This document shows positions 4,936-55,748 of a stretch of DNA of 56,006 nt, one piece after another. The DNA comes from Girardia tigrina. Lineage: Eukaryota. The stretch spans positions 1-56,006 of the forward strand of contig MQRK01222550.1 of assembly GCA_001938485.1 (NCBI GenBank), in the 5' to 3' direction. Below the pieces are notes generated by a model. That model was not told the origin of the DNA. It was given only the letters and a program-made list of their open reading frames with translations, and ran no database searches. The translations under genes and the position numbers were made by a program. Position 1 is the first letter of the stretch. Every line of letters begins with the position of its first letter.

Positions 4936-4959
4936 TTGTCGTACTGATTAATGACAAAT

Positions 4960-15910: not shown

Positions 15911-17063
15911 TTAGGGGTACCCAAATGTTATGTCGTTTTTTTTTATATATTTTTCTAAATCGTTTAACTGCCGCCTACATTATTTTGACTCTACCATTTT
16001 TATTTATTAATTTCAGTTAGTGNNNNNNNNNNNNNNNNNNNNNNNNNNNNNNNNNNNNNNNNNNNNNNNNNNNNNNNNNNNNNNNNNNNNNNNNNNNNNN
16101 NNNNNNNNNNNNNNNNNNNNNNNNNNNNNNNNNNNNNNNNNNNNNNNNNNNNNNNNNNNNNNNNNNNNNNNNNNNNNNNNNNNNNNNNNNNNNNNNNNNN
16201 NNNNNNNNNNNNNNNNNNNNNNNNNNNNNNNNNNNNNNNNNNNNNNNNNNNNNNNNNNNNNNNNNNNNNNNNNNNNNNNNNNNNNNNNNNNNNNNNNNNN
16301 NNNNNNNNNNNNNNNNNNNNNNNNNNNNNNNNNNNNNNNNNNNNNNNNNNNNNNNNNNNNNNNNNNNNNNNNNNNNNNNNNNNNNNNNNNNNNNNNNNNN
16401 NNNNNNNNNNNNNNNNNNNNNNNNNNNNNNNNNNNNNNNNNNNNNNNNNNNNNNNNNNNNNNNNNNNNNNNNNNNNNNNNNNCCTACACACACACCTAAG
16501 CCTAATCTCCATGGGAAAAAAGTTCTTTTGTGCATTTGGTGGAATCACAGAGGAATTATCCACCATGAATTGATGCCACCCGGTGAAACCATAACTGCCG
16601 ACGTCTATTGCGAGCAATTAAACCGCTTGAGAGACGCAATGACTACTAAATGCCCGGGATTGCTCAACAGAAATCGCGTTATCCTACAGCATGATAACGC
16701 TAGACCACATGCTGCAAAGAAAACACAGCAAAAATTGAAAGAATTGGGATGGGAAGTTCTACCTCATACGACATACTCTCCTGACTTGGCCCCTTCGGAT
16801 TACCATCTCTTTAGATCTTTGCAACATTATCTTCAGGGTAAAAAATTCCTATCAATGGATGATGTCCAAAATGGACTGGTGAAGTTTTTCGAATCCAAGG
16901 ACGAATCCTTTTTTTCTAATGGCATAGATAAACTTATATCACGTTGGGAAAAGGTCATCGATTGCGATGGGGACTATTTTTCTGATTAAATAAATGTTTT
17001 ATATGGTTTTATTTTTGTTTCTAAAAATCAATAAAAAACGACATAACATTTGGGTACCCCTAA
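15911..17063 (+). mobile_element. Mariner (DD34D) transposon with intact TIRs; centre hidden by an N gap
   Basis: TA-TTAGGGGTACCCAAATGTTATGTCGTTTTT ... AAAAACGACATAACATTTGGGTACCCCTAA-TA: ~30-nt perfect TIRs with TA TSD. Confidence 0.95.
16483..16989 (+). CDS. Mariner transposase, C-terminal catalytic part
   Basis: LQHDNARPH and YSPDLAPSDYHLF motifs, open to the stop at 16989. Confidence 0.93.
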   Translation, partial: PTHTPKPNLHGKKVLLCIWWNHRGIIHHELMPPGETITADVYCEQLNRLRDAMTTKCPGLLNRNRVILQHDNARPHAAKKTQQKLKELGWEVLPHTTYSPDLAPSDYHLFRSLQHYLQGKKFLSMDDVQNGLVKFFESKDESFFSNGIDKLISRWEKVIDCDGDYFSD

Positions 17064-18881: not shown

Positions 18882-21800
18882 TTAGAAAATCCCACAGACC
18901 ATATTAGCAGGCACAGCTTTATCCATTTGTTTCGGATATGGCAGTTTCAATTCTTCCATTATTTTTATAAATTCATCTCTAGATTTCGTCAATCGTGGGT
19001 TATGTTCCAGTTCTTCCCTCACACTCGTTACAGTTTGCCCTGTGTAATCATGAGCTGGATAAAGAAGAAAGTGCGGCGGTAGACTTAAAATGTGTTTGTG
19101 GACGGAGTCATATAATCTTCCTGAATCACCTTGTTGAAAATCAGTTCGTCCACAACCTCGAATAAGAAGAGCATCACCAGTAAAAGCCATACCCTTCTCT
19201 TCCAAAATATACGTTAGACAACCATCGGTATGACCTATTAAAATAATATTTCAAAATTTTTAAATTATACATTTTCTTTAATTTATAAGGATTTTGAGAT
19301 AATGAAATGTTTTCATAGTAATAAATCTTGTACTAAAATATGATCAAAAAATTTAACTATATTGATATACATTCGTGGAGTGTTATAAATGAGTCACAAT
19401 TCATCACAAAGCTACCAAAGTTTTGAATTAATCACTAAACCGACTGATGTTCAACAACCTTAACCCTTAAAGACATGATGATGTATATGTACATCAGTTT
19501 TTTCTTCCTTGCATAATTTCTAAACGGTAATTCAAACACAGTATTTTTTTACTTTTAGTAGGTGCTTAAAATATCTATCTTAGTTTTTGAACGCAAACTT
19601 TTATGATATGGCAGTCCACTTCTTTAATTGTCAAAATTTGACAGTTTGGCGCAACACTTTCCTTTCACATTTATTGTAAAAACCTTACTTTGAGGGTTCT
19701 ACTTTTTACTAAATTTTATTACAATAAAACAGGTAGAAATTATGTGTCACAAAGGACCACAGAGAGAGGACAGCTATCGACTATAGCGTCATTAAGCGTC
19801 CATAGTTTGAGTTCGTTCCAGGATGGAGTTGACTGGTGTATTCTTGGAGCTCGAGCAGGGGTTATACCAGAGGATGTTATGTTTCGCCCAAGTTGATTCG
19901 CAGTGCTTGATATTGGATATCACATCTTCTTCGGAGATTATTGATTGCAGTATCGGATAGCTTCAGATCCTTGAGCACTTCGTCATTCTTTTCTGGCCAT
20001 GAGCCGAGACAGCCAACGACAATTGTGCCGAGTTGGATATTCCATCCTGGGTATTTGGCTTTAGCTCCAGCTTCAAGGGACTCGTATTTCGTTTTATTGA
20101 GCTCTCTGGCAGATTTGAGGTTCTCCGTCTCATCGTATGGGGTCTTTATATCGATCAGCCATAGAGTTCTTCCTCCAGTGTTTTTGGCCTGTATATCGAT
20201 TCTTCTGCTGTGAAATGGAGATCCAAAACATATATAATAACCAATTTCTTAAAAAAGGTTTAACCAAAATTATTTTTCCTAATTTTTTTGATTAATTTTA
20301 ACAATTTTTAAGAACTTCTCTACTTTGCTACTCCCAGTTTCCTAAATATGTATAACCTTACAACGGACATTGATATACATCCGAATTTAGTCGTTAAACA
20401 CAAGTAAAATAGCTTTATGGACCCTATTGGAATTAAAAAAAGCTATGTAAATAAGATTATTAATAAAGACTAATTTGGTAGGAACCAGAACGGTATGTAA
20501 ACTGCGGAGGAAAGATTCCGAAGCACATAAGCTTAGAGATGCACCTCCCTCGAAGACAATTTTCATTTAAAAGTTTCAGTGTTTTTCAGGACTTAGTGTT
20601 AAAGTGATCTTGTACGTGGTGCCAGTAGTGAAAGCTCTTTTCTACGGTATCAGCATCTATATCAATCCAGCGAACCAATTTCTCAGTTTCCTTGTTTATT
20701 CACGAAATATTTAAACGGGGGCATACTGTCGTGATATCATCAATGCTGATCGTTTATTTATGTTTAATTCTATATCACAAAATGCGCGATTTAATTTTTC
20801 ATCATGAGTCTAAACGTATCGAACGAATTCAACGAAATCGACGAAACCACCCTTGTTTACGTCGGCATTTTCCAAAAATAGTTCGGTTAATAATTTATCT
20901 TGGAGATTTTTATTATTCAAATTGCAAGTCCATAGACATTTAAACAAATAGACAAATCTGAATCCGACGATTAATCTCAATTTTAATTTAATGATAATCT
21001 GATCACTCGGTTCAATCGCATTCATGTATTCGACATTTTTACAGAAATTTGAAATCCGATTAGAAACAAAATTCAAAAGGAAGAACCAGTCCCGTACAAC
21101 TTGTATTTTTCTTTACAAATCAACTCAAATTCAAAGTCAAATCATTGATAATTTCAGATTATTTTGAAGCGTTTATAAAACGCAAAAAATAATATTTTTT
21201 ACAAAATATAATTTCCTTTTTTATATAAATTATACATTTAATTTTAATTTTATATCTACATTTTGTATTTACATAAAAATTTCGAATCCAGAACATACAT
21301 GTTTAATTATTTTTTGAAACTGGAGAAGGTAAAGTAGAAAAGTATCATTGTTTAGTCTTAAATGAAATTGCGATAAAACATCCAGGCTTATTCTCAAATT
21401 ATCAAGATTGCGGAGGACTACAACACTCAGCATTCAACAGGCTAAACACTATACACAGTACTTCAGATATTATCGACCTAAATTGTATCACAAAATATAC
21501 TTATAATAAATAATAAAAATTCAAATTTTCAAAAAATATAATTTAAATTTGTTGAGATTATGAAGAATTAGTTAAAATTTGCACATCGCCAAAATAATTT
21601 ATTAATTTTTTGAAAATTTTTAAAAATTAAATAAATACCAAAAATTTTAAAATTAAAAAAAGTTAAAAAGGATTTTTAAATGAAACCAAACGAAAATTAA
21701 ATTATTATATAAAACAAAAAATGTTTACATTCATAACAATTGATATATTTTATAAAAGTTTTAAAATAAGAATTTTAAAATAAATATGAACGATTTAAAA

Positions 21801-27800: not shown

Positions 27801-30800
27801 TTACAAAATTTTAAAATTAAAACTCCTAAAAAAGAACTTTGTTTAAATATTCAAAAATTTAAAAAAGCAACATTTTTTAATAGAATAAATAAATAGGTTT
27901 GCGCTGCAAACAGCTCTTCTAACATGGCGACCAAAGTCTCGCAGATCCTCCTATCGCGATCTGTCCCAGATCGATTCAAGAAAGGAGATGTCGAAATTTT
28001 CATTTCCAAATGCCATATATTCTTCGAGTAACGCAGACTAAAGAAAATGTAAAAACTATTTTGGTGAAAACTTTGCTAGACGACGAGACCATCAAAGATT
28101 ATGAGGAAGTAGATGACGGCGTGAAGAATTTTGAAGATAGATTGCGACAAGCGTTCACCAATAAGAGTTCCCGATTTAAAGTCCTGGCAGAAATTCTGGA
28201 ATACGGAAGAGGTTCTGAATCAGTTGAAGACTACTTTCAGACTGTGGCAAAATTGGTCAAGAAATTAGCCGCATACAATTGGGACGAAGCCGAATTAGAG
28301 AAGGAGATACTATTGAACTGTTCCAGTGATAAAGAGATCTTAAAGGAAGTTGAGATGAGAGATTTAAATGAAATTATGGATATAAAAAAACGATGACAAA
28401 AACGGACAAGATACAAAAGAAATATAATCATTTCAATGCAGTGAAAGATGATTGGATCCAGGTACAATCCCAAAGAAACAAGACATAATCTGGAATTAAA
28501 GGATTAGAAACGACATTGAATAACAACAACCAGAGAGGCCCACAACCGACAGTGAGAAATTTTAAAGCGGAAGATTTACAATACGGAAGGCGTATTGAAT
28601 CAAGACGATGCTGGTCTTGCAATTTAATGGGACACATAAGCAGGAACTGCAGCAAAAGATTGCCCGTCACCTGTCATGCTTGCGGAACACGGAGCCATAT
28701 CAGAAGAAATTGTCCGAATCTGAAATGTAACCGATGTGCAGCCAATGGCCATAGGAGTGAAGAATGCTATACGAATATGACGAGAAGGCACTGGGCAAAT
28801 AATCAAAGAGAAACCAGATGACCTGATGTCACTGCCACAGTTGGAAGAACTTGGAACAACAACAACTCAAACCGAGGAGATAACCGACAAATGCCGACCT
28901 AAAACAGACCCAAACAACCAAGATACTACGAGGAGACCGACTACGAAAGAGGAGTCCGGAAAGGTAAAGAAATAGCAGCGATGGAGATCGATGACGGTGA
29001 ATGCAGAGACTTCGAGCAAGGAACCCAAAACGAGAGAGGCCCGACCGTAGAGGAGTCGGTCGGAGCCTTACAGTAAGCAATTTTGAATTTAACCGTTATC
29101 GTAAAAGTAGTTTATTTTCTATCTATAATAATATTGTAGCCGATACCGATATTGTAGTACCAATCGATATGTATAATAAGTTATTTATCTAATAAAATTG
29201 ATACAGATAGTTTTAAAGATGTATTAAGTGATCAGAGATACAAATTAGTTCAGACAGATAAAACGATGATCAATAGTATTAAAATAGTAAAATTTTTAAA
29301 AAAAGAGAAAGAGGGAATTTGTGAAATAAGAGACCTGACAACTAAGGCGACCGGTGTAAATGAAAGAGAAAGCTAGATCTCATACAAAATAATGCAAGTT
29401 AGACCGAGCACAAGTGTCGACATCTTGGGAACGAAGATAGAATGATTACTCGACACGGGAACCAGAGTGAATGTCATGAGGTATAACACGTTAAGACAGA
29501 TCATCGACGTAAAATTAGAACCGTCAGAAGAAAAGTTGAAATGCGCAAATGATAGCCAATTGGAGGTCATGGGCAAGGTACATTTAGTTGTCACAATTGG
29601 TGCAAGGAAAGGGAAAGTGACTTTTATAGTTGTAAGAAGCATAAATCCTGAAGTGATCGGTGGAATAGATATGCAGAGGAAGTTAGGGTTAGAATTACAA
29701 TGGAAAGAGATCAATACAGAAGATAAAAAAATCGTATATATGTGAAATAGAAGCAAAATTTGGTAGACAAATATCGGACGAAGATTAAATGAAAAGAGCA
29801 ATAGAAATATTTGAAAATAAAGGAGTCATCAAACCTTTTCGAAATCGTTCAGAAGGACAAGCATGTTTTCATGGCGGATAAGTGGGATATAGGCTGCACT
29901 AAGCTCACTAAGCATAAGATCATAACCGCCAATAAACATTAAACCCCGCAGACAACCGATCCACTTGGAAAGCAAGTTAGCAGAAACTATAAAAAATTTA
30001 CACGATAACGGTATTATAAGACGATGCCAACTTCCAGTGGAACACACCGATAGTGTGTGTTTGGAAAAAAGAAACAGCAGAAGTTAGACTCTGTTTAGAT
30101 TTCAGACAATTGAACAATAATACAAAAAGACAAGCATTTCCGATGCCCAATGTGGAGGAAATGTTAGATTCATTACAAGGATCGAAATACTTCAGCACCA
30201 TAGATCTGGGTAACGCATTTTACCAGGTAAAGTTAGATGAAACCTCACAAGAAAAACGGCTTTTTCAACTAAGTCAGGCCAATTCTGCTTCACTAGGATG
30301 CCGTTCGGTGTTGCAGCAGCGCCCGGTACATTCCAGGAAGTTATGACTAAAGTATTGTCCACAATCGAGTCCGGCGCTTCCGTATATTTTGACGATATAT
30401 TGGTGACCACAGAAACGTTAGAGTAACATTATGAAATCTTCGGAAGGGTTATTCAGAGAATTGGTGAGGTTGGATTACGACTGAATCCTGAGAAATGCAA
30501 GTTCCTACGGAAGGAAATTAAATTTTTGGGGCATATTTTGAAGAAAAACGGAATTAGAACAGATCCTAGCAATGTAGAGGCGATAAGAACATTTACCAGA
30601 CCCAAATACATAAAAAACCTAAGGAGTTTCCTAGGTATTTGCAACTACTACCGTAGATTTATAAAGGACTACGTCAAGAAATCCAGATCGCTAGAAAGTA
30701 TGATTGGAAACAAGACGACAAAGTTAGTCTGGGCGGACACTTGCGAAGCTGCATTCGAAGATATGAAGAAAGCCCTGATGGAAGCACCAATACTTGCATT

Positions 30801-33800
30801 TCCTGATTTTATTTTAAAAGACTTTATCTTGGATACGGATGCCAGCTTCGATATAATTGGTGCAGTATTGTCTCAGAAGAATGACTCTGCACAAGACCAA
30901 GTTATAGCTTATGGCTCACACGCTATGAACAGCCACGAAAAAGGTTATTTCATCACCAGAAAGAAACTGCTTGCAGTATACAATTTCTGTGACCATTTCA
31001 AACATTATTTATATGGAAAAAGATTCATATTAAGAACAGACCACAAAGCCATAACGTTTATGATGAAAACGAAAAATCCAGTTACGGCACAATTTCAAAA
31101 TTGGCTGAATTATATCAGTAGTTTAGATATCAATATGGAATTCAGGAAAGAAACATTACACTCAAATTCAGATATGCTATCAAGAAATCAGTGTGGGACT
31201 TGCACGCAGTGCCTGATGGAACACGAGGATGCCAAGTGGGAAAAGATAAAAACAAGGATTTTAACAGTGAGCCCTCAAAATACAATCCCGGAATGGTAAA
31301 CGACTAATGAGGAAATACAAGAAATAAAAAGAAAGACATAAAACAGTAAATTCAAAGTCAGTGAAGAGATAGTATATACTGTGGATGGTAAAATATGGAT
31401 ACCACGAAATAGGAGAATCGAATTTATAAATCATGTACATCAATTATTATGTCATGCCGGTTCTGGAAAGACATACAAATATATCAGTAACAATTATGAT
31501 ATGACCGACAAAAACAGCATAGTAAAAGAAACTGTAGAAAAATTCTCTGTCAAAAATCAAAAACCTTAACTACTAAGACAAAAGAAATCCATGGAAAGAA
31601 ACACAACGAAGAGAGAAATACATTATTGCGATCATTGACCATTTCAGAAAATATGTCGTATTGATACCGAGCACAAAACAAGTTGAAAACACTATTACAG
31701 ATATACTCAAAAATAACTGGATCCTACGATTTGGATCACCCAAAGAAATTTATGCTGATCGTGGGAAATGTTTTGAATTGAGGAAAGTTGCAGATATAGT
31801 AAAAGAAGTAGGATCGGAGTTAAAATTGTCTAGCCCTTACCACCACAATACTAATGGCATGATCGAACGACAGTTCCGGACTATAAGAAAATATATTAAT
31901 GCGACATTGAAAGATAGCAATTTGTTCGCGCGCACAATACATGACGGCTTCGATGATTGTTGGAAGCAACTTTTGATTTTTTTCCATATTTTCAGCAATC
32001 ATTGAAATAATTGCTGAGTTGATACGCAATGCTGGATTAGCCAAGTGCTTTAGTAGTTAAAAATTGTTTCATGGTTGTGAGAAGTGGTTGCAACGTCTAT
32101 ATCAGAATTCATTTTTTTTAAAACACCAAAATTTATTAATATAACAATTCACATTTCTAAAACAAATTTTCCTGTTAATTTAATTTAATTATCTCGACCC
32201 AAATTAATCCATTAAATTCTTTTCGAAAATTTATTTCAAAAAAATATTTAAACTTTATTTTCAAAATCAATTTTTAAAATTGCTTATTAAAAATATTTTT
32301 ATTTATAAATAAATATTTAATATTTTTGTTTTCTTGACANNNNNNNNNNNNNNNNNNNNNNNNNNNNNNNNNNNNNNNNNNNNNNNNNNTTAAATAAATA
32401 TTTTATTTTTTATGATTTTCTTTTATTATATAATTTTTAATTTTTTAAAATATTTAATAAGCAAATTAACATAAAAATATTTTACCCTTTAAATTAAAAA
32501 ATAATAAATTATTCAGACGAGATAAAAATTTAAATTAACCCCTCATAATGGTCATTTGATGAAAATTTTTTGATTCGTGATCATTTAGAGGTTCCTTTGA
32601 TTTGTTGTAGTTTGAAAAGGGTATTTTAACAAAAACACCTACATTCTCTTTTCAGAAACGCTCAAGAATAATACGCACGAAAGACACCATCAACCTTTGT
32701 TGCCATTTTGATTGACAAGAAATACTTTTGTCTTACATTCGCCAATTTGAAAGTTCTTCTTTTCAAATTCAAAATTATCTGATGGTTTCCAACAATTGTT
32801 TAAGAAGTTCCCTTTTCTAAATCACTCAATTTTTGAAGAATACTTTCATCAAGATATGAAGCAATGTCAGTGCAATTAACAAAATCTAATGGCTATTTTG
32901 AGACAAATTCGACTAATTAAAACGAAAGAATTTTTAAATAAAAAATTTTTAAGTTTATAGATAATATTTTAATTAAACTGGGACGATTTTTTTATAAAAA
33001 TTATGTTTTAAAAATTGACAATTAAAATAACAGCTTTGGAGTTAAAGAATATTATAAAGAAGATTTTGATATATTTTGTATCACTATTTAAAATCATGTT
33101 TATTGAATTTAATTGTCGTTAAAAGTTTTAATTCGGTTTCTTTAATTTTTAAAGGACAAAATATTTTTGTCCAAAAAAACTTAATGATTTAATTTTTTAA
33201 AGAAAGTTGTTGAAATGTTTTAAATCGTAATATGAAAATTTCATTTTTTTTAAATAAAAATAAATTAGGTTATAGAATTTATAAATTTTCTTTTCATAAT
33301 ACTTTTTAATCAAGATTAAGTAAAATAAATTTTAAAAACTAAAAGTAATATTACTTAACAGAAAATAAACTTTAAAAAGAATGCAATTTCTATTAACCAT
33401 TTCTGTGGTCAACCTCTTGGAAAAAAGTGGGTCAAAAAAAGCCACCCTTTTTTTTCACTATTATGTTTTTTTATCATATTTGTGTTGGTGGGGGAATGAC
33501 CCGAGCTGGATTTGGGCAAATCACTATTCAAAGTTTCGTGTATGATTTGCCCGAATCCAGTTCGGGCAAATCACTGTGTCAGCAAAATACCTACCCGAAT
33601 GGTATTCGGGCAAATCACAGAAGTGGTTAAAACCAAATAAAGGGTTTTATTGAAAAATAATTTATCATCGAATGATTAAAAATCAAAAAAATATTTAAGA
33701 ATTGAATTTTTAAAAAAAAGTATTTTAATAAAGATCTAAATTTATAAACATTGTAAAAAAATTAATAAAACAGAAACAAAATAAGATTTATGCAAAATTG

Positions 33801-41081: not shown

Positions 41082-44000
41082 TTATTTCAAATGATCGTGT
41101 GACATATAATTGAGATTAACGAGGTACTGAATGATATTTGATTCCGGTGTCATCATAAGTTCTTCGGCAAAAATCACCACCGAACTGTAAGTAATGGTTG
41201 TCAAGTCTCTACAATGAATAAAATACAAAACAATGTTGCTAAAGTGATTTATCATATTCGTTTTTTCATATTTCAGCTCGAACTTTTGTTTAATTTCACT
41301 TAAAATCGGTTCATCATCAATTACCGGATTCTCGAAAATCAATGTCACAAAATACCCTATGCAAATATCAACTGGGATCTCTTTCCACGGACCTTGGTAA
41401 ATGATTTGCTTAGCCTTCACGATCACTAAATAGTCGGTCATGTTTTCTAAATTATTAATTTCTGTTGACGTTAAAACGACCGCACAGTTTTGAAGTTTCG
41501 CCAATTTTATCAAAGAAATAACACTCTTGCGACTAGTCGAATCGAGATTAGCGAGAGGATCGTCGAGGACGATCAAACTCGAGAAACCGATAAACGATAT
41601 ACCGATGGATATTTTTTTAATTGTCATCGGGGAAAGGTCTTTAATCACTCGAAAGCAATCTTTCCTCAGGTCTAACTCATCGATTATGAAGGACGACATA
41701 AGGTCGATTTCCGGATGCGAATGTGACATTAATTGCGACCAAAAGCAAAACATTTCTTCCACTGTTAATTCATCAAACAACGCACAAGATTGTCGACAAA
41801 ATGAAATACTCGGTAGCATTTGCTTGGACTTTGAAATGTCCAATTTGTGATTGATAAAAGTGATGACACCAGACTTCCTGTTTTTACAATTAGTTATATA
41901 TCTTGATAGGAGCGTCTTTCCGGAGTTATTCGACCCCAATATCACAGAAAGTGTACCCTTCTTTATTTTCCAATTAATGCCTTTGAAAGCTTTCGAATGA
42001 ATGTTCTTATTATAGAAAGACACGTTCTCAAAAATTAATAAATACGACTTTAATTCTTTATCGGTCATCGTGGGTTGATCAGGATTTTCAGTTTTGTTAT
42101 TACAACTGGGGTTTGACTTGGACTTCCTGAATAGGAATAACCAGTGCCAATAAAACGGACAATTGGAAATCATCAAAAGACTACAATATATGCCCCATTG
42201 TATCACAAGGATCTTAAACACAAATCCAAAAGTATAGCTTCGATTATAATCTAGAGAAGATCTGGAAACCAATTGATTGATACACAAATGATCGAAAAAA
42301 TCCCACGAAAGATTCTGTAAATACGACACTAAACCGCTATTGAAGTTTGTTGCAGGAATGAAAATAATAAACACCGTAAACCAAATAGAATGATCATTGT
42401 TGCATTTTGGTTTCAATTGATAACCGAGAGTTTTGAGATTTATTTTAAAAATTTTAAAAGATATTGCTGAACACAGAAACATTGAAGCCATATCGACGAT
42501 TATCGTACAAAGTATATTCGACGGAGTATAATGAAATTTTTCACCAAAAAACGTTTTGTAAGCCACATCCGACAATCCGTATACGCATAACAATAACGCT
42601 AAATAATAGACATTTTCGTCCTTTGACGTGAATCCAAAATCACTCATTAAGTATATCAATAGTGTCACAAAGGCAAAGTAGAGGAAAAGAAGTGCAACAT
42701 CAACTAAATATTTCGGAACAAACCGAAGACTGTAATGAACGACGACGAATTTCGTGAACTTATTTCTTTCTAAAATCCCAAATCGAAAATTTTGTACAAA
42801 TAAATGATTACTATAAACGATAATCGAAATGAAAATTATCCTCAACAGTAAGTTCTTTTCCATTAAATCCATTTCTTGTGGTTTTTCCTGAATTGTCGAA
42901 ACAGTGTCAAATATAATGTCCACAGAATTCTTAAAGTAACCTTCCAGTTGTTCAAAGGCTTTTGCAATAATGTTTTCGAAATTCGATAAGATGTTTATTT
43001 TCATGGAATCCGTTCCACTGACGATATTCGGAAAATAAATGGCGACTTTTGTTGTATTTTTATATATCGCTTCATTTCTCACAGCAGAACTGAATAACTG
43101 CCTTGTGAATTCGTCAAACGTCAGGTTCGAATAGAAAGCAAACACAGAACTGTTTTTTAATAACAAGTCAATGATATTTTGCATTGACTTGGAAATGTTT
43201 AAGGGAACACCGAAAACGATTTCGTCAATTACAGTTGGATACATGGAATAGTAGGCGGAGTTATGTCTTAAAGTGACTTCTAATACAACGAAAGACAAGA
43301 CAATTAGCAAAGGTGTCAAAATGGATAAAGTCGTTTTGTTGGAATAGCGATAGAGCATCTTCAGTCGATGAGAGAGTAACACTTTTAGTTGTTTCAAGTA
43401 TATCACTTCAAAGACTGGCTCTTCTTTCAGTTTTATTTCATTCCTTTTCCTTTGCCATTTATCAATGACGATGTGATGGTCTTGTTGAGAAGATTGTCTT
43501 TGGTCGGTCTTTTGTTGGTAAACATAATCAAAGTATTCTTGAAGATTGAAACGCTTGATGTAGATGTTTTTCAAACCACATCGACTTTCATTTGATAAAA
43601 GGGTTTCATAGATGCTGTCCAATTGATCCGTTAATGAATTTGGAATCTGAAATTGAATATTTTCGTTTAAAGAGGAAACAAAAATAATTTGTGGATAGAG
43701 GGTGCTGATATATTTTACAATGCTATACGTTCCAGCGTTCTTTTCCATTTGACAGATTAGCTTGAATCCTAAACGGTTTTCCATTCGAAGATTCACCGCA
43801 TAAGACTGAAAAACCACTCGTCCAGAAACCAGTAAAATGACTTTATCAACACATGTTTCAATATAGTCCGCACGACTTGTCGCAATGATGATCGATTGTT
43901 GACTCTTTCTTTCTTCGAAAAGGTTGTTGATATTTTGCTGTGACTTGAAATCCAGTCCGAGGTAAGGTTCGTCAAGAACAACAATCGAAGTATTTAGAAG

Positions 44001-45995
44001 AAAGACACTCAATAACTGTACGAGTCTTATAATAACCGGTGGGCACTTATAAAGTTTTATTTTCAAGAATTCGTTTATATTAAGAATTGTACTCAGTTTC
44101 TTAATCGTCGACTTCCTATTACTATCATCGTCTTTTTTCGCGAGGCTCGTTGAAATTATCAAATTGAAATATTCGAAAATCGTCAGGAAATTAAAATCTA
44201 ATTTATAATCGATAAAAAACGCGACTTGAGAAAACAATTTTTTGTTGGTTATATTGTTAATTTTGATATCGTTTATTTGGAAATATCCTTGACTTTGTTG
44301 AGTAAGACCGCAAAGGATTTTTATGATTGTTGACTTTCCGCATCCGTTCGGTCCGACAATTGCTGTTACTGCGTTTTTCGGAAACGACATGCTTAAGCCT
44401 TTTAAAGCGAAAATTGGCTCTCGAGTGTGGCTTTGGTAATATTTTGATAATCTTTTCACGCGTATACAAACGGGCCGTGATGGACTAGGATCAGAGAAAA
44501 TTCTTTTCATTCCTCTCGACAAACTATCGAATGGAGACGATTGTAACGTGTTCAGCATTCGTAAACTCAATCTTTGATTAGGACCTCTACGGATACTCTG
44601 TCTATTGGGCCGATGACTGCTTGAGTTATGAAATGATTTCTCTTCCATTGACAAAAAGCTACTGTTAGCCACAAGAGATAAATCGCTGTTGTCAAAGGTC
44701 CCCGTACTATCAATTGTACGTAATCTTTTCATTATCATTTGCTTGTTAAAACATTTAAATCTTTTATTAAGCTTTTTAAATAATAGTACAATCCAATTAT
44801 TGTTTCTCTCGATTATAATGAAAATGGAAACGAACCAATACGATAAATTTATAAGACCGAAAAATAAAAACGAAGAATTCGAATCTTTACTTCCGGAAAT
44901 GAATTCAAAATCCAGTCGATGTGTTTCGATCTCTTCCACCAATGCCATCAGAGATCCCATTAAAAATACTGGTGAAATTAGATTTTCGTATTGAAGAAAA
45001 AGAGATGTATTTAGAGAATTGCCTTTACAAAATATATAAAGTATTTGTGGTCCCATAATCATCGTTGATCCGAGTAAAACAACGTAAATGTCTATGGGAA
45101 TCAACGAAATTAAAGAAGCTGTAAAGAGACCGGTGTTATAAACTACTGTAAACATTGCAAACAGAAATAGCGAATGGAATTGGGTAATGATATTTCGTCC
45201 GGTAAACGATTTCATAGAACAAACAATCAAAATATTGACGAAAAATGCGTACATGTTATACGTTAGAAATAACGACACGAATTTCATATAGAGGTTTTTG
45301 TAAGCAACTATCGGATACTGATAGGACTTGGTGAGTTTATGAAAATTCACGACGAAACATCCGATAATTCCAAATAAAAATAATAAATAAACTCCCGGCC
45401 ACGATAAAGGCCGGTCGAAAATATCCGGCAAACGACCGATATATATTAGCGGTCTTTCTGTTTCGTTAAAGGTTGTATGGTTTATTAAGGCATCACAAAT
45501 CAAATGAATTCCTCGAATGAAATTCGCCTTCGGAGGAGACCCTAGAAATTTATCATTCTCGTTAACTGACAGAGAAAGATTAATTTTTTGAATATCTTTA
45601 ACGTCGATATTGAAACTACTCAGTTTGGTAGCGTTATTAATTGAATGAATCTGATAGATGTAAGCGAAGTCAGCGATATCTTTATTAATAATTTGGTCCC
45701 GAATCGAAGAAATATTCCGAAAACCTTTGCGAATCGTTTGTGGACGTATCAATTTAATTATTTTTGCAACAACTTTTTCATCCGGGTAATAGTAAAGGTA
45801 AACTTTCGAGAAATTGAATATTTTGTGACTTTCGATCAAATCCCATTGCGAAGTATCGGTGTTATTCAGTAAAGTGTAGCACTGGTATAAAAATACAACA
45901 TTTCCCATGAGAAATAAAAATGGAAAAATAAAATTATGGTACAAAAATAAAAAGTTAAATAGAATATATGCTTTTATTTCATGAATGAAATACAT
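41082..45995 (-). CDS. Divergent full-length ABCA-family transporter, intronless (1637 aa)
   Basis: TM1-ECD-5TM-NBD architecture twice; Walker A GPNGCGKS and GSNNSGKT; Walker B IVVLDEP and LIVLDDP; post-NBD GFKL, LQEYF and GYFV ABCA-like motifs. Confidence 0.9.
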   Translation of the reverse strand: MYFIHEIKAYILFNFLFLYHNFIFPFLFLMGNVVFLYQCYTLLNNTDTSQWDLIESHKIFNFSKVYLYYYPDEKVVAKIIKLIRPQTIRKGFRNISSIRDQIINKDIADFAYIYQIHSINNATKLSSFNIDVKDIQKINLSLSVNENDKFLGSPPKANFIRGIHLICDALINHTTFNETERPLIYIGRLPDIFDRPLSWPGVYLLFLFGIIGCFVVNFHKLTKSYQYPIVAYKNLYMKFVSLFLTYNMYAFFVNILIVCSMKSFTGRNIITQFHSLFLFAMFTVVYNTGLFTASLISLIPIDIYVVLLGSTMIMGPQILYIFCKGNSLNTSLFLQYENLISPVFLMGSLMALVEEIETHRLDFEFISGSKDSNSSFLFFGLINLSYWFVSIFIIIERNNNWIVLLFKKLNKRFKCFNKQMIMKRLRTIDSTGTFDNSDLSLVANSSFLSMEEKSFHNSSSHRPNRQSIRRGPNQRLSLRMLNTLQSSPFDSLSRGMKRIFSDPSPSRPVCIRVKRLSKYYQSHTREPIFALKGLSMSFPKNAVTAIVGPNGCGKSTIIKILCGLTQQSQGYFQINDIKINNITNKKLFSQVAFFIDYKLDFNFLTIFEYFNLIISTSLAKKDDDSNRKSTIKKLSTILNINEFLKIKLYKCPPVIIRLVQLLSVFLLNTSIVVLDEPYLGLDFKSQQNINNLFEERKSQQSIIIATSRADYIETCVDKVILLVSGRVVFQSYAVNLRMENRLGFKLICQMEKNAGTYSIVKYISTLYPQIIFVSSLNENIQFQIPNSLTDQLDSIYETLLSNESRCGLKNIYIKRFNLQEYFDYVYQQKTDQRQSSQQDHHIVIDKWQRKRNEIKLKEEPVFEVIYLKQLKVLLSHRLKMLYRYSNKTTLSILTPLLIVLSFVVLEVTLRHNSAYYSMYPTVIDEIVFGVPLNISKSMQNIIDLLLKNSSVFAFYSNLTFDEFTRQLFSSAVRNEAIYKNTTKVAIYFPNIVSGTDSMKINILSNFENIIAKAFEQLEGYFKNSVDIIFDTVSTIQEKPQEMDLMEKNLLLRIIFISIIVYSNHLFVQNFRFGILERNKFTKFVVVHYSLRFVPKYLVDVALLFLYFAFVTLLIYLMSDFGFTSKDENVYYLALLLCVYGLSDVAYKTFFGEKFHYTPSNILCTIIVDMASMFLCSAISFKIFKINLKTLGYQLKPKCNNDHSIWFTVFIIFIPATNFNSGLVSYLQNLSWDFFDHLCINQLVSRSSLDYNRSYTFGFVFKILVIQWGIYCSLLMISNCPFYWHWLFLFRKSKSNPSCNNKTENPDQPTMTDKELKSYLLIFENVSFYNKNIHSKAFKGINWKIKKGTLSVILGSNNSGKTLLSRYITNCKNRKSGVITFINHKLDISKSKQMLPSISFCRQSCALFDELTVEEMFCFWSQLMSHSHPEIDLMSSFIIDELDLRKDCFRVIKDLSPMTIKKISIGISFIGFSSLIVLDDPLANLDSTSRKSVISLIKLAKLQNCAVVLTSTEINNLENMTDYLVIVKAKQIIYQGPWKEIPVDICIGYFVTLIFENPVIDDEPILSEIKQKFELKYEKTNMINHFSNIVLYFIHCRDLTTITYSSVVIFAEELMMTPESNIIQYLVNLNYMSHDHLK

Positions 45996-48955
45996 TGTAA
46001 TATTTGAAATGATAATTGATAATTAATTGATTTATGTTACATTATATATGTTACATTACACGTCGTATTTGGATAAATTATACTACACTTGTTAACTTTT
46101 TCCTAGGATTGCCGGATTTTTTACTGACTGCTAGATGTCATCAGGAGAAAGTGGCCCTCCATCTGTTCTACGGACAAACTGATAACGTTGAACCTAGATA
46201 CATAACACATTGTTTAGAAATCTTTCGTTGACTCATACTTATATACTTAGATAATGTTATAACCTTATTACGAGTTACCAAGGGTACATCCATAACTTTA
46301 AATATCTAACTACAATTTAACCTAAAATAAACAAAAATACAAATAAATATTTAGAATTCAAACAATCAAGAAATAGATCAATTAAACCATTGATTTTGTT
46401 AAACGTAACAAGTACTTATATAAAATACTTATTCTTAACTTTTAAATAAAGCATATGATGAGAAAATTAAACAAATGATAAAAAATGAACAGTATTAGCA
46501 ACATCACAATTTGAGTGTAAACATTAATTAACAACACAAACATTTTCAGTAAAAATTTCTGCTGGAAGCATTGTTCGTGACTAATATGTTTTTTTTCTAT
46601 ATTCAAATCTTTGATTTAATTAATGAGTTAAAATAATATTAACTTTTAATTTCTCAAAAATTTATTGAATAAAAATACATTAAGTAAATTTTAAAATAAA
46701 CACAATAAAATCCTTTTACTAAAAAATATTATTAAAATTTATAATAATAAAACTTTTTAATTAATTAGTATTTAAACATTAATCTCATTAAATTAATTTC
46801 ATTAGATTCAAATAATCAATCAAATAACATATCAATCCCATCTGAGTAGGAGAGTCACCAATCTAAACAGTATACAAACAACAAACTTACAACATTCAGA
46901 ATTTTACCTCACAAACAGTGTTCAGATTAATTTTCACAAGGGTGTATGTCATTTATTCTACAATATAAAGATTAAAAAATATTTTCAAATTTTATAAATT
47001 TATGAATAAAAGATAAACTTTCAAATATTAAAATATAGCTTTCCCGTCATACATTACGAGTCCTTTCCTAGTAGATTATATTCAGGCATAATAAATTTGA
47101 TAATTCTTTCTTTACAATTTTCTTTTCACAGAGATTTGATAAATTCATCTAATTTTTGAAAGATAATGTCCTGATCCTGAGATTAATAAATTCATTCATT
47201 ATATCCAATAAAGTTTTTGGTTTTGAGTAATCTGCTTTTAATTTCTCATAGAATAGAACTCCCAGTGCTTTATCACCTTTTAAAACGACTACAACAATAA
47301 CCTTTTGTTCTTCTGCAAGGCCAATAATTTGAGTAGTACGATCAAAGTTTTTTTTATAAATTCGTCAAATTTTGATTTCGTTCCCTCAATTTTTTTGGAT
47401 CTTCGGTGCCGCAATGGTTGTGGTTCAAAGACGCTTTCATAAAACATTTTCATGACTAAAATTTATTTTTCAATCAACAATCTACAAATTTAAAACTTTT
47501 TCTCTTTCTCTAAATTTTATTTGAAAGATTTACAAAACGATCAGTTATTTTAAAATATACATAATATAAAAATATAATAAATGCATTCACAGAGAGTCAT
47601 AAAACATTCAATCGTTATTGTGAGGAGTATTTTGAATGTTTGATGTTTTGTGTTTGAATGTTGTATGTTTATTTGGAATTGTGTCTTTCCTACCCAGATG
47701 GATGATTAATATTTGAATTCTTATTATCTAAAAATATGTAATGTTTAAATTTATTTTTAAATTCAAATATTGGTAAAATTTTAAATAAGTTAATTAATTT
47801 TTACAATTTTAATAAATAAATCAAATTAATATTTTTTAAATAATTAATAATCATTTTAATTTTTATCCAATAAGTTTTGAGTAAATATTTTAATAAATTA
47901 TTTATGGCTCCGTTTGCTAAAAATAATAAAAATTAATTCATTAATCAATTTAGTTTTGAATGCAATCGTACTAAAGCTTTGACAAAGATTGTCTTAAGGA
48001 CTGTGAGAAGTGGTTGCAACCTCAATATCTGAATTCATTTTTTAACACCAAACTTTATTTATATAACAACAATTCACATATTTAAACAATTTTTTCTGTT
48101 AATTTAATTTTCTCGTCACAAATAAATCTATTAAATTCTTTTCGATTCAATTTTTAAAATCTTGCAAATTTATTAATTACATTTCACATAAAACTAAAAA
48201 TTTATTTTAAAATTTATTTAAAATCGTTTCATAACTTATATTATTGTTGGGTATTACAAATCTTTAATTTTAAATATTTACTTTTTTACACAAATCTTTA
48301 TTCTTTAAACTTTAATCTGAAATCTTTAATCTGACTCCAATTAATCAGAAAGGACTTCCAACATAAATATATAAATGATTGAACACAAAATTCTTTTTCA
48401 AAACTTTATTTTTCAATAACACAAAATAGGACACAGCTTATATTGTTCAATACAATAATATCAATAGACTTATTCACAAACGGATATAAAATGCGAGTTT
48501 ATCAGATCACAGTTTGTTAATTTTCAAACTCTAAATCTTCTAAACGAACGATAACCGTTAAACCCTTAAAGTTAAAATGAACTTTCTTCTCCTATCCAGG
48601 ATACTTAGTTCGACTTCAACTTCAAGTAAAGAAATAAAAATAAAGAATTTAAATAAATTTACTCTACGTGGATTCTTCTTAAAAATTTGTTGCAGGAAAT
48701 TGTTTGTGTCGATTATGACTGAATTCGTTGTTGTTTATATACTAGTTTTTTCTAACCTTGAAAATTGATCGAATAAAACAAACACTAAAATATTTTTAAT
48801 TTTCAATTCCAAATTTTGCTAAACTAAATATTATTTTGTTTGAAATTAATAATTTTATCAAAAGATTTATTTTAAATTTTTTCTACATAAAATTTTATCA
48901 CAAGTGCTTATATTTATATTTCGGAACCAATGACTTGGAGAAGATCCAACCTGGA

Positions 48956-50111
48956 TTAGCACTGGACCCTACGAACAAAATCCTGTCGCGATTTTTCCTC
49001 AAATAATTGCCACCAATTACTCAAGCTATCTTGGTTGGCATGGAAAATCAGGAGCTTCCGACTCTGGCACTCGTAGCCGACAATATCTGGCTTACTCAAC
49101 AATCGAATGAGAGCAGTTGTTCTCAGGTCACCACCCAGCTTGTTCCGATCCCTGTCACAGTACGCGCACCTGACACACAAAATGCAGATATGCTCACGCA
49201 TATTGTGAGTATTACTTCAATATTATCCAGTTAATTAGTTAATAATTAGTCGAACATTATTTTTAATTGTGGGAGAGTGACAGAAATACTAGGTAAAAGA
49301 CCGGAAATAATAGAAGAAATCATCAAGAGAAGGAAGCTGAAAGCAGCATCAGTCAAATGAATTAACAGAGAGAAGAATAAGAACAGTGCGAGATATGTTT
49401 GTTACTTCTAATATAGGAGAAAATTCTAAAAAATAGTGGACTAGCTGGATACCAAAGATCGAATTCTACATTAATGCAACAAATCAAAGTTACACTGGAC
49501 GATCACCGTTTGATATTATTTGTGGGCGCAAATTATTACTACATGGACAATTCCAGGACTCCTAGATAGACCACGGTGGTAATATTTCAAATAATTTTCA
49601 AATAAGAATACTGCAGACAAGTTGCGGTTGTTGGATAGATCCAAGAGGAGAGAGAGAGCTTTTCATGTTGGAGAAGAAGTTATGGTATAAATGGAGCCTC
49701 ATAAGGCAAAGAAAAACGGGTTCAGATACGAGGGACCTTATAAAATTTTAGAATTTTTAAGTCACATCAGGTATTAATAGATTTCCTGGGTCATCCGAAA
49801 CCGAGAAGAATAGATTGGCTTAAGAAGAAGCAAAAAGATTAAAAAAGTGGAAGTTAGAATATATTGAATATGTTCCACAATTGCGTAACAAGAATTAGCG
49901 ATTACGCAAAGAGATGTTATGTAATTGAAATTGACCTCACCCATTGGCGGGTCAGATCTTATTGCGTAATTACGTCCTACTTTGTAATATTGTATTTTTG
50001 TATTTAAATATAGTTTTATTTAACCGATGTCTTTTAGTTCTTTTACTTGTTATATTAACGCTCTCTCTTCCTCTTCCAGATTAATATCGTGTTTGTGGAT
50101 TCTGATCAACA
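48956..50111 (+). mobile_element. Gypsy debris: gag fragment, integrase tail with GPY motif, purine tract, probable 3' LTR (~49852-50111)
   Basis: PPITQAILVG...LALVADNIW (gag-like); TGRSPFDIICGR and FRYEGPYKILE; AAAAAAGTGGAAG tract; segment ending ...TCAACA. Confidence 0.65.
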
Positions 50112-50770
50112 TTTATCTTAATATAAAAATCAACAAAAATACTAAGAAGGATGAAGTGGATAATATTCAGAATAAAAAAGCCCAATAGAGATGCAGTTTA
50201 TCTTCACTATGTTTTGACATTTTATCTATTTCTAAATTGAAGTTATTATAGATTACATGGATGAAAATGATTTAAGAAGAGAAATATATAGCTCTGATAT
50301 CGAAAAGAATTATAGATAAAAAATATTAATTTATTTTTGAGATGCAGACTGTAAGTTACAGTCTGTAACGGCTTACTAATCTAAGTCATATTTTTGAAAA
50401 AAAAATAAAATTTAAGATTAATAATCTGAATAATTACAACTAACTGAAAGAAAAAATAAAAATATATACATTTAGTGGTTTCTATAAGGGTTACCGTTTT
50501 TAAAATACTGAAGTAACAAACTGACATTTAAAAGAAACTTAAATATATGTTTATATTACTTTCCTCAAAGTTGTTCCGCCTAATTTGATATAGACCCTGA
50601 TGTTTTGTTTCAATGTCTTATCAGTATCAATTTTCTTAAATTAATTTATAAAACAAAAAATGAACAAAAAATACATATTAAACAATTAATAATTGTTCTT
50701 ATTATAAATTAATTAATTAATAGAAAAATAATTATCGAGTTTATTTTTGATCCATAATGATAATCAATTC

Positions 50771-53700
50771 ATGTCTTATAAAATTTTAATTACTAAGCGA
50801 TATCTTAACACCTACAAAGTGTTCCTTTATTTCAACTTTTTCTTCTTGTGTAAGTGTTCGATTATTCTTTTTATCTGTATATTTGGATATATGAATGTCT
50901 TGAGTCACATTCGATTTATGTTAAACAATTTAAAATATCCAAATTGGCAAATGAGAGATGTTAGAGATTTACTGACGGAAGAAGAAGTAAACATATACTA
51001 TTATCCCGACTTTCCAATAGTTAATAAAATAGTGAATTTAATACAAGGTAAGAAAGTAATTCGACCGATTTTATTAAATAAAACCTTAGATCCGGATATC
51101 ATATTCTCTTCGCGAGTGTCTTTGATATTTATCTTTGGATTTTTGTCCATCAATAACGAATCGAATTTCACGAATTTACAACTTGAACTTCCTAACGTTA
51201 CAAGCGTTAGTGTGTCGATTTTAGTGAAAAATAACTATGAAATAATCGAAGGAAAAAGCCACCCAAATTATTTAAATGCGATTAATTTAATAGATTCTGC
51301 ATTTTCCAACGAAATCACGTATAATGATACAATACCACATAAAATTTTTGTCGGAGGATTACCAGATAATTATAATCGACCTTTAGTTTGGCCGGCAATT
51401 TATATGCTATTTCTATTTGGTATCATGGGTTGTTTCATAATAAATTTCCGTAAACTAAATAAGGCATATCAGTCTCCGATGTTGAAAAACGCGAAAATCT
51501 ACTTGAAAATAATATCTTTATTTATTTTGTATAATATATGTGGATTCGTTATACACATTTTGTTTATAACTTATATGACAGTTATGAAAGATATCAATAT
51601 TCTTTCTGCTTGGCCATTCATATTTATACTGTCAATGTTTACACTTGTGTATAATACAGGATTACTTATCGCTACTTTAATATCAAGTATCAATTACAAC
51701 GTAAAATATATCGTTTTTGGGACAACAATTTTCATCATTCCTCAAATTCTTTATATTTTCTGCAATGGAGGCAAGGTGAATTTGTTATTCACCTTTCATG
51801 CTTTTACTAATATTTCACCGATTTTTCAAATTGGATGGATTTTGATGGCATTTGAAAAATATGAAACATATGAAAAGTATGGTCTAAATGAATATGATTT
51901 AGTATATTGGCGTTTTCATATAAAAATTGTCATTCAATTAATATTTTGGATAATTTCTTGCTTGATAATTTATTGTGTAAATAGTCCAACAATTTTAATG
52001 TTCTACGATCGGATTCTTGGCAACTTGAAATGTTGTAATTGTGAACAAAAAAAGAAAATAACCAGTGCTGATGGTTATATAAGCACAATAGATGATAGTG
52101 AGGTTGGAAGTATTTATCATACAGAAACACCAGATATTTTTAATGAAAATAACGACACTAAAGTTTTATCAAATAGACTAAGCCTCAGAATTGCTCGCAG
52201 TTATTCGACTCATTCAAGCAATCCTTTATATCCTGGAACGAAAACGATGAATAAACAATTTTTAGATCAATATACAAATCATCCGAAATGTATTGCTGTT
52301 AAAAAAATATTTAAATATTATAAAACTGAACTTCAAGAAATTTATGCTTTAAATGGTTTTTCTATGACAGCCCATAAAAATTGTTTGACAGCTGTTGTTG
52401 GACCAAGAAGTTCAGGAAAATCAACATTAATAAGAATACTCAGTGGGATGATTCGACCGTCACAAGGATATTTTACTGTTAATAAAATGAAAGTTATATC
52501 GAAACATGATAAAATATTGTCTCAGATTGCTGTTTTAAGTAGCAGTAAGTTAATATTTGACTTTTTAACAACGTTAGAATATATAAATTTATATGTATCA
52601 TTAAAAATACTCAAAAATGTTGATACACATTTAATAGAAGAATTGACAACACTCCTACAAATACAAGATTATTTGAATAAAAAATTGTGTATATGTCCTC
52701 CTGTTGTTATAAGACTAGTTCAGATATTAACTACTTTCCTTGCTGACACACCAATCGTTCTTTTGGATGATCCTTATTTTAATTTAGATTACGAAAGTCA
52801 ATGTAGTATCAACAACCTCTTTCAACAAAGAAAACAGCAACAGACGATTATTGTTACAACATCTTTAGCCAACAACATAGAAACATGTGCTGACAAAGTA
52901 GTCTTAATTGTTTCTGGAAAAGCTGCATTTAACGGTCGATTATTAAATATTAGAAAAGAAATCAGATTTGGTTATAAACTAACATGTTATATGGAAAATG
53001 ACACAGGTTTTTATATTGATACGTTAATCAGATCGAAATTTCCCGACGTAAATTACAAATCATCGAATCGTAAAATGATTGAATTTAAAATACCGAGCTG
53101 CTTAAAAGACGATTTAGAAAAGATATAACAACATTTAATAAAAAATTCCCAAAAATATGGAATACTGAAAATCAAAATCAACCGAATAAATTTACAATGG
53201 TATTTCTATCAGACTTGTAAAAAAAACCGAACCTATTCGACAACATTTGACGATCAATTAACAAGTACTTCGACGGTTTTTTATGACAATTATCCCGAAC
53301 ATAAAACGTTTTTACAGATCTATATTAAACAATTCGTTTTGATGCTATTCAATCAATTTGTTATACTGTATCGATTTCATCATCAAACGACCTTGACGTT
53401 TTTGATTCCACTTTTTACTGTCGTTTGTTCGATCGTCATTACTTCTTTTGTGCGTAGTGATTCGATTTCTTTTAATGAATTTCCGAAAACTGTTGACGAA
53501 ATTATATTCGGAATTTCGAAACGAATTCCGCCGGGTATCAATATCGACAAGATCATTCACGACATATCGCCCAACAGTTCTGTCGGGAAAATCAATCATA
53601 ATTGTTCTTTTCGGAGTTTTATTGATCTGTTATTATTGATGAGCAATAATGACCCGATTGATTATAAAAACAACACAAAAGTCGCAATTTATTTCACAAT

Positions 53701-55585
53701 TACCAAATCTAATTTTCTGAAAATAATAATTCTTTCGAATTTCGAAAATATTTTAACGAAATTATTTGAAACGATAAAAAACTCATTGATTAAATCTGTG
53801 GATATTGAATTTCCGGATGTGAAAATGCGAAAGGGATTGTTTCAATATTCTGCTGAACATGAAAAAATGTTTTTCCTACAACTAATGTTCATGTCGATAA
53901 TCGTTTTCGTTAATACGAGATTTTATTTGTCCCATTATAAAGAACGAAATCGATTTTTCAAAATCGCAGCGATTCATTATACGATTTGTTTCTTACCGAA
54001 ATATTGCATCGATATTTTGGTGGTGTTTTTGTTCAATTGTTTTATCGTTTTGATTATTTACACTTTACAAGACTTGAAACTCAACAAACCCAACGATAAT
54101 ATGTTCTATTTACTTTTACTTTTATTTATTTACGGTATGGCAGATTTGACGTTTAAAACTTTGATTGGTCATTTTTTCAATTTTGGAGCGATCACAATAT
54201 TCTTTTTTATAATTTGTGATTTATTTTCTTCATATGTTACTTCAGTGATTTTTCTTAATTATTACACTTTTTTAATGAACAAATACGGTTATTCTTTTCA
54301 AGAACAATGCCTACACGAATTGTTTGTTGATATGATTTTGTTGATATTGTTTTTTCCCTCGGAAAATCTTAATAACGGGTTTCAATCTTATGTATCTAAT
54401 CCTATAATACAGACTTATAATGAAGAATGTGGCAATCCATTGCTTTCTATATCAATGACTGGATCATACATTGGATTCACATTAGGGTTTTCAATTTTAT
54501 TACTCTTTTTGCAATGGATTGTGTATTTTTGTCTCCTTCTATTTGTAAATCATCCTTACATTCAATACTTGTTTGGGTTCTTGAATTTTTCAAGAGTGGA
54601 AAAATTTAGTAAAATAAATGAATCAGCTGAGAAATCAGATCATCCGATTATTGTTCTTAAGGACGTTTCTTATATTAAAAATAATTGTTGGAAAAAACTG
54701 AAAAAAATCAACTGGACCATTACAAAAGGAACAATTTCCTTAATTTTAGGGCCTAATAGTTCCGGTAAAACTTTACTCACAGAATTAATAATCGGTTTCA
54801 AGAAACCGACATCCGGTTCGATATTTCGGAGGAAAACAAAGACCAGAAGATCTAAATTTGAGAATGAATTTAAAAGAGTATCGTATTGTCCACAATTTCC
54901 AGTTTTATTTGAGGAGTTAACGGTTAATGAATTCTTTTCATTGTGGGCGAATATTCGTTGTATTCCAGCAAAGAATATCAACTCAATTATAAATTTAATA
55001 ATGAATGAATTAGATTTATTGAAAGACTCTCAAAAGTTAATTCAAAATCTTTCCCAGTTGACAAAAAAAGTCATTGGTTTGGGAGTATCTGTTGTCGGTT
55101 TCCCTAGTTTAATCATTGCTGATAATCCTTTAGCAAATATTGATATTTCGTCTCAAAGAAGCATCATTTCTCTTTTAAAAATTGCCAAGTTTCACGAATG
55201 TTCTGTAATAATTACGGCAACAGAAGTGAACGATTTACATGGGTCCATTGACAATATTCTTATATTGAAGAATTATGAAGTTCTTTATCAAGGTGAATGG
55301 TGTAATATTCCAAGTGATATTTATGTAGGATATTATTTGACAATAGTTTTTGAATTTCCGATGAATAGTTTTGACTTGGAAGAATGTGAAATTGTTAATA
55401 AACTAGAAACAAAGTTCAAGAAATCGCGATTGATAAACCACTATCAAAATATTGTGATTTTTTTCATTCCGTGTAAAAACACAGAGGAAACTGAGTACCA
55501 CTCAATTGTTATGTACATTGAAAAAATTATATCGCCAATTCCGAAAATTATTCATTACTTTATAAACTTTAATATTTTATTATGA
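50771..55585 (+). CDS. Second intronless ABCA paralogue; one reading frame with a single internal TAA at 53126-53128 (young pseudogene, split gene or base error)
   Basis: ORFs ending 53128 and starting 53339 are in frame with 70 open codons between them; aligns with the 1637-aa paralogue (YYYPD, RPL.WP, VYNTGL, PQILYIFC, NTKVAIYF, ILSNFENI). Confidence 0.88.
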
Positions 55586-55748
55586 TCTTTTGATAATTAT
55601 GTAACTTCTATTGTTACTATTAATAAAATAAAAAATACGATTTTATAGATGTATTATAATGGAAATTAAAACTCCTACAGCGCAAAGAACTTTCTGTTCT
55701 GTGTGTAATATTTTAGTATGATATATTTTCAATCTATTAACCGGGAAA

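Follow-up and report, generated by a model that had tools for sequence, protein, structure and literature searches.

A conserved ABCA subfamily with two degenerate ATP sites, predicted to bind nucleotide without efficient hydrolysis

The common view holds that an ABC transporter cannot do without at least one competent ATP site. According to the available text of PMC7756269, an ABC site in which aspartate takes the place of the catalytic glutamate retains slow hydrolysis, and the available text of PMC5940251 describes how a regulatory switch in SUR1 can be driven by nucleotide that is bound but not hydrolysed. For ABCA4, the accessible part of PMC8219669 reports that a protein with both glutamates changed to glutamine binds ATP but does not hydrolyse it, and that binding may suffice for extrusion, with hydrolysis only resetting the cycle. 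Here I describe two ABCA-like genes, A and B, in a 56,006-nucleotide stretch of DNA (hereafter the window), and the family to which they belong. The best reading of these sequences is that they represent a conserved, doubly degenerate ABCA subfamily, predicted to bind nucleotide without hydrolysing it, that exists beside normal ABCA genes in the same genome. Literature searches, in which subscription journals were thinly covered, returned no description of this subfamily or of any doubly degenerate ABCA.

The window is AT-rich, and the two genes (Table 1) are divergent, with an ATG-to-ATG distance of ∼4.8 kb, in the head-to-head arrangement described in the original prediction. The PF00005 (ABC_tran) profile is found in every piece of A and B, at 106.9, 39.3 and 67.8 bits (Pfam curated cut-off 25); Pfam ABC2_membrane_3 was not matched in these pieces. 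Two TMD-NBD halves are present, each NBD is followed by an R domain, and R2 aligns to ABCA3, which is the ABCA architecture. The extracellular domain between TM1 and TM2 is small in half 2, as read from the structural model described below, and in half 1 is predicted from hydropathy.

Table 1. Features of genes A and B, in window coordinates
Feature	Position	Strand	Basis
Gene A, full-length ABCA-like ORF of 1637 aa, intact and without introns, TMD1-NBD1-R1-TMD2-NBD2-R2	41082..45995	-	one open frame; domain order partly from fold model
Gene A NBD1 Walker A GPNGCGKS, Lys present	44331..44354	-	motif alignment
Gene A NBD1 signature position CPPVI; Cys651 family-invariant	44031..44045	-	motif alignment
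Gene A NBD1 Walker B VLDEP; sole catalytic Glu among the window's four NBDs	43965..43979	-	motif alignment
Gene A NBD1 H-loop IATSR; Ser replaces His	43872..43886	-	motif alignment
Gene A NBD2 Walker A GSNNSGKT	41913..41936	-	motif alignment
Gene A NBD2 signature position LSPMT; Ser retained, both Gly gone	41622..41636	-	motif alignment
Gene A NBD2 Walker B VLDDP; Asp replaces Glu	41556..41570	-	motif alignment
Gene A NBD2 H-loop LTSTE; Thr replaces His; adjoining Glu1512 family-invariant	41460..41474	-	motif alignment
Gene B, paralogue of A (36% identity) without introns, one in-frame stop	50771..55585	+	ORF and paralogue comparison
Gene B segment in dispersed solo-LTR-like elements, often joined to 53057-53175	51885..52526	+	at least 40 matches elsewhere (93-98% identity)
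Gene B NBD1 motifs: GPRSSGKS 52400-52423, CPPVV 52694-52708, LLDDP 52760-52774, VTTSL 52853-52867	52400..52867	+	motif readout
Premature TAA in gene B R1 domain, codon 786 from ATG 50771	53126..53128	+	reading frame
Gene B NBD2 motifs: GPNSSGKT 54749-54772, LSQLT 55049-55063, IADNP 55115-55129, ITATE 55211-55225	54749..55225	+	motif readout
Gene B 3' segment, second dispersed set	55099..55637	+	35 further matches, about 92-94% identical (L053-L056)

An AlphaFold2 model of gene A residues 500-1637, built from a 68-row alignment (pLDDT 84.9, pTM 0.80), shows the order NBD1-R1-TMD2-NBD2-R2, and its 19 best PDB matches in Foldseek are all ABCA3, ABCA4, ABCA7 or ABCA1 (best E 2e-48). Because the alignment consists mostly of canonical ABCAs, this likeness is partly inherited, and the model confirms the register of the motifs rather than their function. 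A single-sequence model of residues 1-850 reached a pLDDT of 33, and the first 499 residues therefore lie outside the useful model.

The original prediction had read a Walker A, signature, Walker B and H-loop motif in each of the four NBDs of the window, and all sixteen readings are correct letter for letter. Alignment with canonical ABCA NBDs and the secondary structure of the model agree that these motifs are at their true positions. In the model the signature helix is capped by the Cys-Pro-Pro stretch, and the H-loop substitutes both come after the strand expected there. No intact LSGG or histidine is found elsewhere in register when the domains are aligned to canonical ABCA NBDs. The Walker A Lys-Ser/Thr pair and the Walker B aspartate are present in all four domains, and a further loss, overlooked at first, is that of the Q-loop glutamine from NBD1 of both genes.

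The subfamily of ABCA proteins that includes A and B is old, conserved and lineage-restricted, and extends beyond the window. The assembly (1.43 Gb, split into 255,254 contigs, of which many are redundant) contains three further full-length, intact paralogues, C (L031, 1619 codons), D (L032, 1587 codons, with copies on two redundant contigs) and E (L033, 1577 codons). There are thus at least five paralogues in the genome, four of the five with intact frames of 1577-1637 codons, and the earlier notion of a two-gene system is not borne out: A and B are two members among these, and nothing shows that they act jointly. A possible sixth paralogue (L064, 6050-6893) was rejected, as it is a decayed, frameshifted fragment of the TMD1 region of C, with 79-92% amino-acid identity.

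A search with gene A alone gave 99 matches, all canonical ABC proteins, the best ABCA being 20-29% identical, and the protein atlas returned generic ABCA clusters only. A profile was then built from A, C, D and E and searched against 1.84 billion protein representatives, and it is only with this profile that five relatives outside the genome emerged, spanning 306-1366 bits. Three are full-length (P0123, P0100 and P0124, 1008-1366 bits) and two are partial (P0126 and P0127, ∼300 amino acids each). The best match outside the family scored 336 bits, and, of the non-family matches, those that were looked up are arthropod and nematode proteins with ABCA names. Pairwise identity among the eight full-length members is 22-58%. 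A quick tree, which omits a non-ABCA outgroup and four proteins whose second Walker A was missed by the search pattern, separates A, B, C, P0100 and P0124 from D, E and P0123, such that each sub-clade has members outside the genome. In this tree NBD1 and NBD2 of the family each form a long-branch clade, and the long branches blur their placement within ABCA.

I next tabulated the motifs in the 18 NBDs of the family (nine NBD1 and nine NBD2). The Walker A lysine, the Ser/Thr that follows it, the first Walker B aspartate and the D-loop aspartate are present in 18/18. In contrast, the H-loop histidine and the LSGG signature are found in none, and the catalytic glutamate in four, all of them NBD1, where this position is Glu in four sequences and Asp in five. 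In 16/18 domains the position after the first Walker B aspartate is acidic. The Q-loop glutamine is absent from all NBD1 and retained in five of the nine NBD2, and the signature serine of NBD2 is retained in 9/9. The Walker A of NBD2 is itself deviant, having lost the fourth glycine in 8/9 sequences and showing alanine for the first glycine in 2/9. Across the NBDs of the eight full-length members, the invariant columns are as few as 27/220 and 24/229 (10-12%); despite this, the glycine, lysine, Walker B aspartate and D-loop aspartate are invariant in both NBDs.

Two residues have become newly fixed, a cysteine at the first signature position of NBD1 and a glutamate immediately after the H-loop histidine position of NBD2 (9/9 each), and both map to composite site 2. 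The replacement motif that had been noted as shared between the paralogues, CPPV, is indeed common to A and B, but in full it is specific to this pair, and only its cysteine extends to the whole family.

Residues for binding are therefore kept, and those for hydrolysis lost at both sites, in 8/8 full-length members. The family does not follow the pattern of one degenerate and one consensus site: both composite sites are degenerate, site 2 more so. A complete site, defined as catalytic Glu, H-loop His and partner signature, occurs in 0/8 members, versus at least one in 224 of 232 other two-NBD proteins; this comparison set required two fully aligned NBDs and, having been collected in part with a degenerate profile, is not a random sample.

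Gene B requires separate consideration. It had been counted among genes keeping long frames, which is correct for gene A; in gene B an in-frame TAA, overlooked in the original prediction, splits the frame into 785 and 818 codons. An intron excising this stop was considered and rejected, as there is no intron-sized gap against the paralogues. The same TAA occurs on two redundant contigs, making three contigs in all, which are identical in sequence and from one assembly, and so do not count as independent.

Copies of parts of gene B are scattered through the genome, and mobile elements seem to have picked up this gene on three or more occasions. Among 63 loci, five complete element copies have TG...CA ends and 5-bp target duplications, and are solo-LTR-like. 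These elements with a captured piece of gene B measure 1.0-1.3 kb and come in two length variants (L012 841-2122, L013 1242-2232, L015, L016, L025). A third dispersed piece corresponds to window positions 53196-53653 (L065, L066; about 82-86% identity). Seventeen matches were found to the segment near the stop, and the nine that cover the codon (two of them on redundant contigs) all read Tyr, so the TAA most likely arose after capture by the mobile elements. The repeated capture may reflect gene B mRNA having been abundant where these elements replicate. Four sequencing runs presumed to be RNA contained 48-67% of the words sampled from gene B, a figure that weighs neither for nor against its expression.

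The rest of the frame is clean, and a single stop with no frameshift implies a very short neutral history. Gene B as represented in this assembly is thus probably a young pseudogene or null allele. It is possible, though on the unlikely side, that gene B is alive, the TAA being an assembly error, a polymorphic allele, a site of readthrough, or the point at which the gene is split into two half-transporters. The clean remaining frame would suit this, as would the position of the stop late in R1, with the next methionine (53342) just ahead of the second TMD, so that the pieces resemble natural halves. However, the TAA is shared by three contigs, albeit identical ones from one assembly, and it is the usual terminator here, ending 6/9 of the other ORFs checked. 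Re-initiation after 785 codons is moreover unusual in animals, which counts against a gene B in two halves.

What could such proteins do? I consider it moderately likely that this is an old ABCA subfamily in which Mg-nucleotide is bound and efficient hydrolysis is absent at both sites, with gene A intact and the stop in gene B probably recent. Each NBD would hold on to ATP or ADP by its Walker A Lys-Ser/Thr pair together with the Walker B aspartate that binds Mg, while the partner signature glycines are replaced by proline or bulky residues and the glutamate, the histidine and the NBD1 glutamine are missing. Since the signature glycines and these residues are lost, the NBDs should not normally close into a hydrolysing sandwich, and the protein would therefore remain close to the open ABCA state that is accessible to lipid, or switch by binding alone. 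It would then serve as a membrane sensor or scaffold that binds lipid and is tuned by nucleotide, and not as a pump, with pumping left to the canonical ABCA genes of the same genome. I lean, with similar moderate confidence, towards this bias to the open state and a sensor or scaffold role, with nucleotide binding but no efficient hydrolysis. Binding at NBD2 may be weak, because the fourth Walker A glycine is lost in nearly all sequences.

The main alternative is a slow or rewired ATPase that still moves lipid. Hydrolysis would take place at site 1 or at site 2 in a remodelled form, the invariant glutamate next to the NBD2 H-loop possibly serving as base in place of that of Walker B. That this glutamate and the invariant NBD1 cysteine share one composite site is consistent with such remodelling, as is the prevalence of an acidic residue after the first Walker B aspartate; site 1 for its part keeps the lysine, the signature serine and, in 4/9, the glutamate, and the available text of PMC7756269 indicates that slow hydrolysis persists after a Glu-to-Asp change. 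Against this, the NBD1 position drifts between Glu and Asp, which is unexpected for a catalytic base, and no NBD of the family has the histidine or either signature glycine. Ordinary ABC ATPases, too, commonly have an acidic residue behind the H-loop histidine. A rewired ATPase thus seems unlikely.

It is improbable that the family is a nucleotide-independent scaffold or receptor, in which the NBDs are retained as folded domains and nucleotide binding is incidental. The deviant NBD2 Walker A glycines and the loss of the NBD1 Q-loop glutamine in 9/9 would be in line with this, but the Walker A lysine persists in all 18 NBDs of proteins so divergent overall, and it has no known folding role.

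The remaining question is whether the motifs reflect selection. In all ten pairs of the five paralogues, synonymous differences are saturated (pS 0.71-0.80) and non-synonymous differences are lower (pN 0.32-0.54), with dN/dS of 0.24-0.35 in the three pairs for which dS is defined, and the NBDs are the most conserved regions. Simulated neutral change in gene A had introduced a mean of 3.3 stops by 0.01 changes per site, and none of 200 frames remained open by 0.02. Synonymous sites are saturated and the frames are still open; the family is therefore under purifying selection. Decay, in which the odd motifs would be neutral damage to pseudogenes, can point to the premature stop in gene B and to the fragment of paralogue C, but it is highly improbable and, for the family as a whole, appears largely refuted by four intact frames with saturated dS, by the identical motif pattern in relatives outside the genome, and by the damage to gene B itself, which fits only ∼0.01 changes per site of neutral time and so cannot explain motifs shared by the family. 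The earlier suggestion of selection rather than decay consequently stands for the family and for gene A, but not for gene B, which is broken in the assembly.

The same genome encodes canonical ABCA proteins with LSGG, DEP and His, including ABCA1-like genes with long open frames (L038-L040, L047, L049-L051) and an intron-bearing ABCA3/5-like gene (L061). The canonical ABCA1-like genes (L040, L047, L050, L058) are expanded and nearly intronless, two of them on one contig. As canonical ABCA1-like frames reach 2321 codons, intronlessness was rejected as a special trait of A and B. A canonical ABCG gene of the genome has an unnamed match at 76%, while the best of the named single-domain matches, at 40%, comes from the flatworm Macrostomum lignano; the host is thus probably a flatworm of free-living type. 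Intronless, divergent ABCG-like frames were also seen on small contigs (L048 3454-5015 and L052 1647-2411), unlike the white-like ABCG L037; I take these to resemble microsporidian ABCG. Elsewhere in the window are exons that I presume to be Nup214-type propeller-like (4842-5612), acyl-CoA thioesterase-like (10929-11312) and persulfide dioxygenase (ETHE1)-like (18882-19250), together with what are presumably a mariner-like transposase remnant (16021-16989), a broken Ty3/gypsy-like element (27923-32005) and, between A and B, gypsy-like remnants (about 49400-49800).

A selected family that has no competent site is a natural test of ABCA function by nucleotide binding alone, and automatic names of the type "ABCA3-like ATPase" conceal probable pseudoenzymes. 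Knock-down and mapping of expression are standard techniques should the host be a flatworm of planarian type. The available text of PMC6467871 mentions an ABCA5-labelled, sexual-biased transcript of a planarian; from that text it cannot be tied to the family, as the canonical L061 also exists, and a germ-line role for the family is speculation.

Compared to known systems, the closest in architecture are the ABCA lipid transporters, human ABCA3 (PDB 7w01), ABCA4 and ABCA1, which share the TMD-NBD-R repeat and ABC_tran domains (best PDB sequence match E 7e-32). The family differs from these in being only ∼20-28% identical, in its apparently small extracellular domains, and in the absence of LSGG and His at both composite sites, and mostly of Glu. 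Individually, the same changes (Glu to Asp, an altered signature, loss of the H-loop) are described in the available text of PMC7756269 for singly degenerate proteins, namely ABCC/MRP1, CFTR, SUR1, ABCB11, TAP and some human ABCA. In the human full-length proteins covered there, it is always NBS1 that is degenerate, the other site being canonical, whereas in the family both are degenerate. SUR1 is a precedent for switching by binding alone, yet it keeps one competent site, as described in the available part of PMC5940251.

The nearest parallels in degeneracy come from the comparison set. Of its eight proteins that lack a complete site, four are strongly degenerate at both sites, and these are ABCA-named arthropod proteins, from the beetle Onthophagus taurus (P0266), the spider Trichonephila clavata (P0235), the fly Teleopsis dalmanni (P0202) and the mite Dinothrombium tinctorium (P0131). 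The mite protein also lacks the NBD2 Walker A lysine. Like the family, they are full-length ABCAs with no canonical site, named ABCA3-like or ABCA1-like, but they carry other replacement residues, lack the Cys/Glu pair and score 224-282 bits against the family profile. Since these four proteins reached it with other substitutions, double degeneracy recurs in animals, and it is probably convergent between the arthropod proteins and the family. A bolder proposal, on which I am nearly evenly divided and slightly doubtful, is that both ATP sites have been repurposed in this animal full-length ABC subfamily, with site 2 rebuilt on the cysteine and glutamate to give a pseudo-ATPase lipid receptor or a new catalysis, and that, the arthropod double loss being independent, pseudo-ABCAs would form a recurring and overlooked class.
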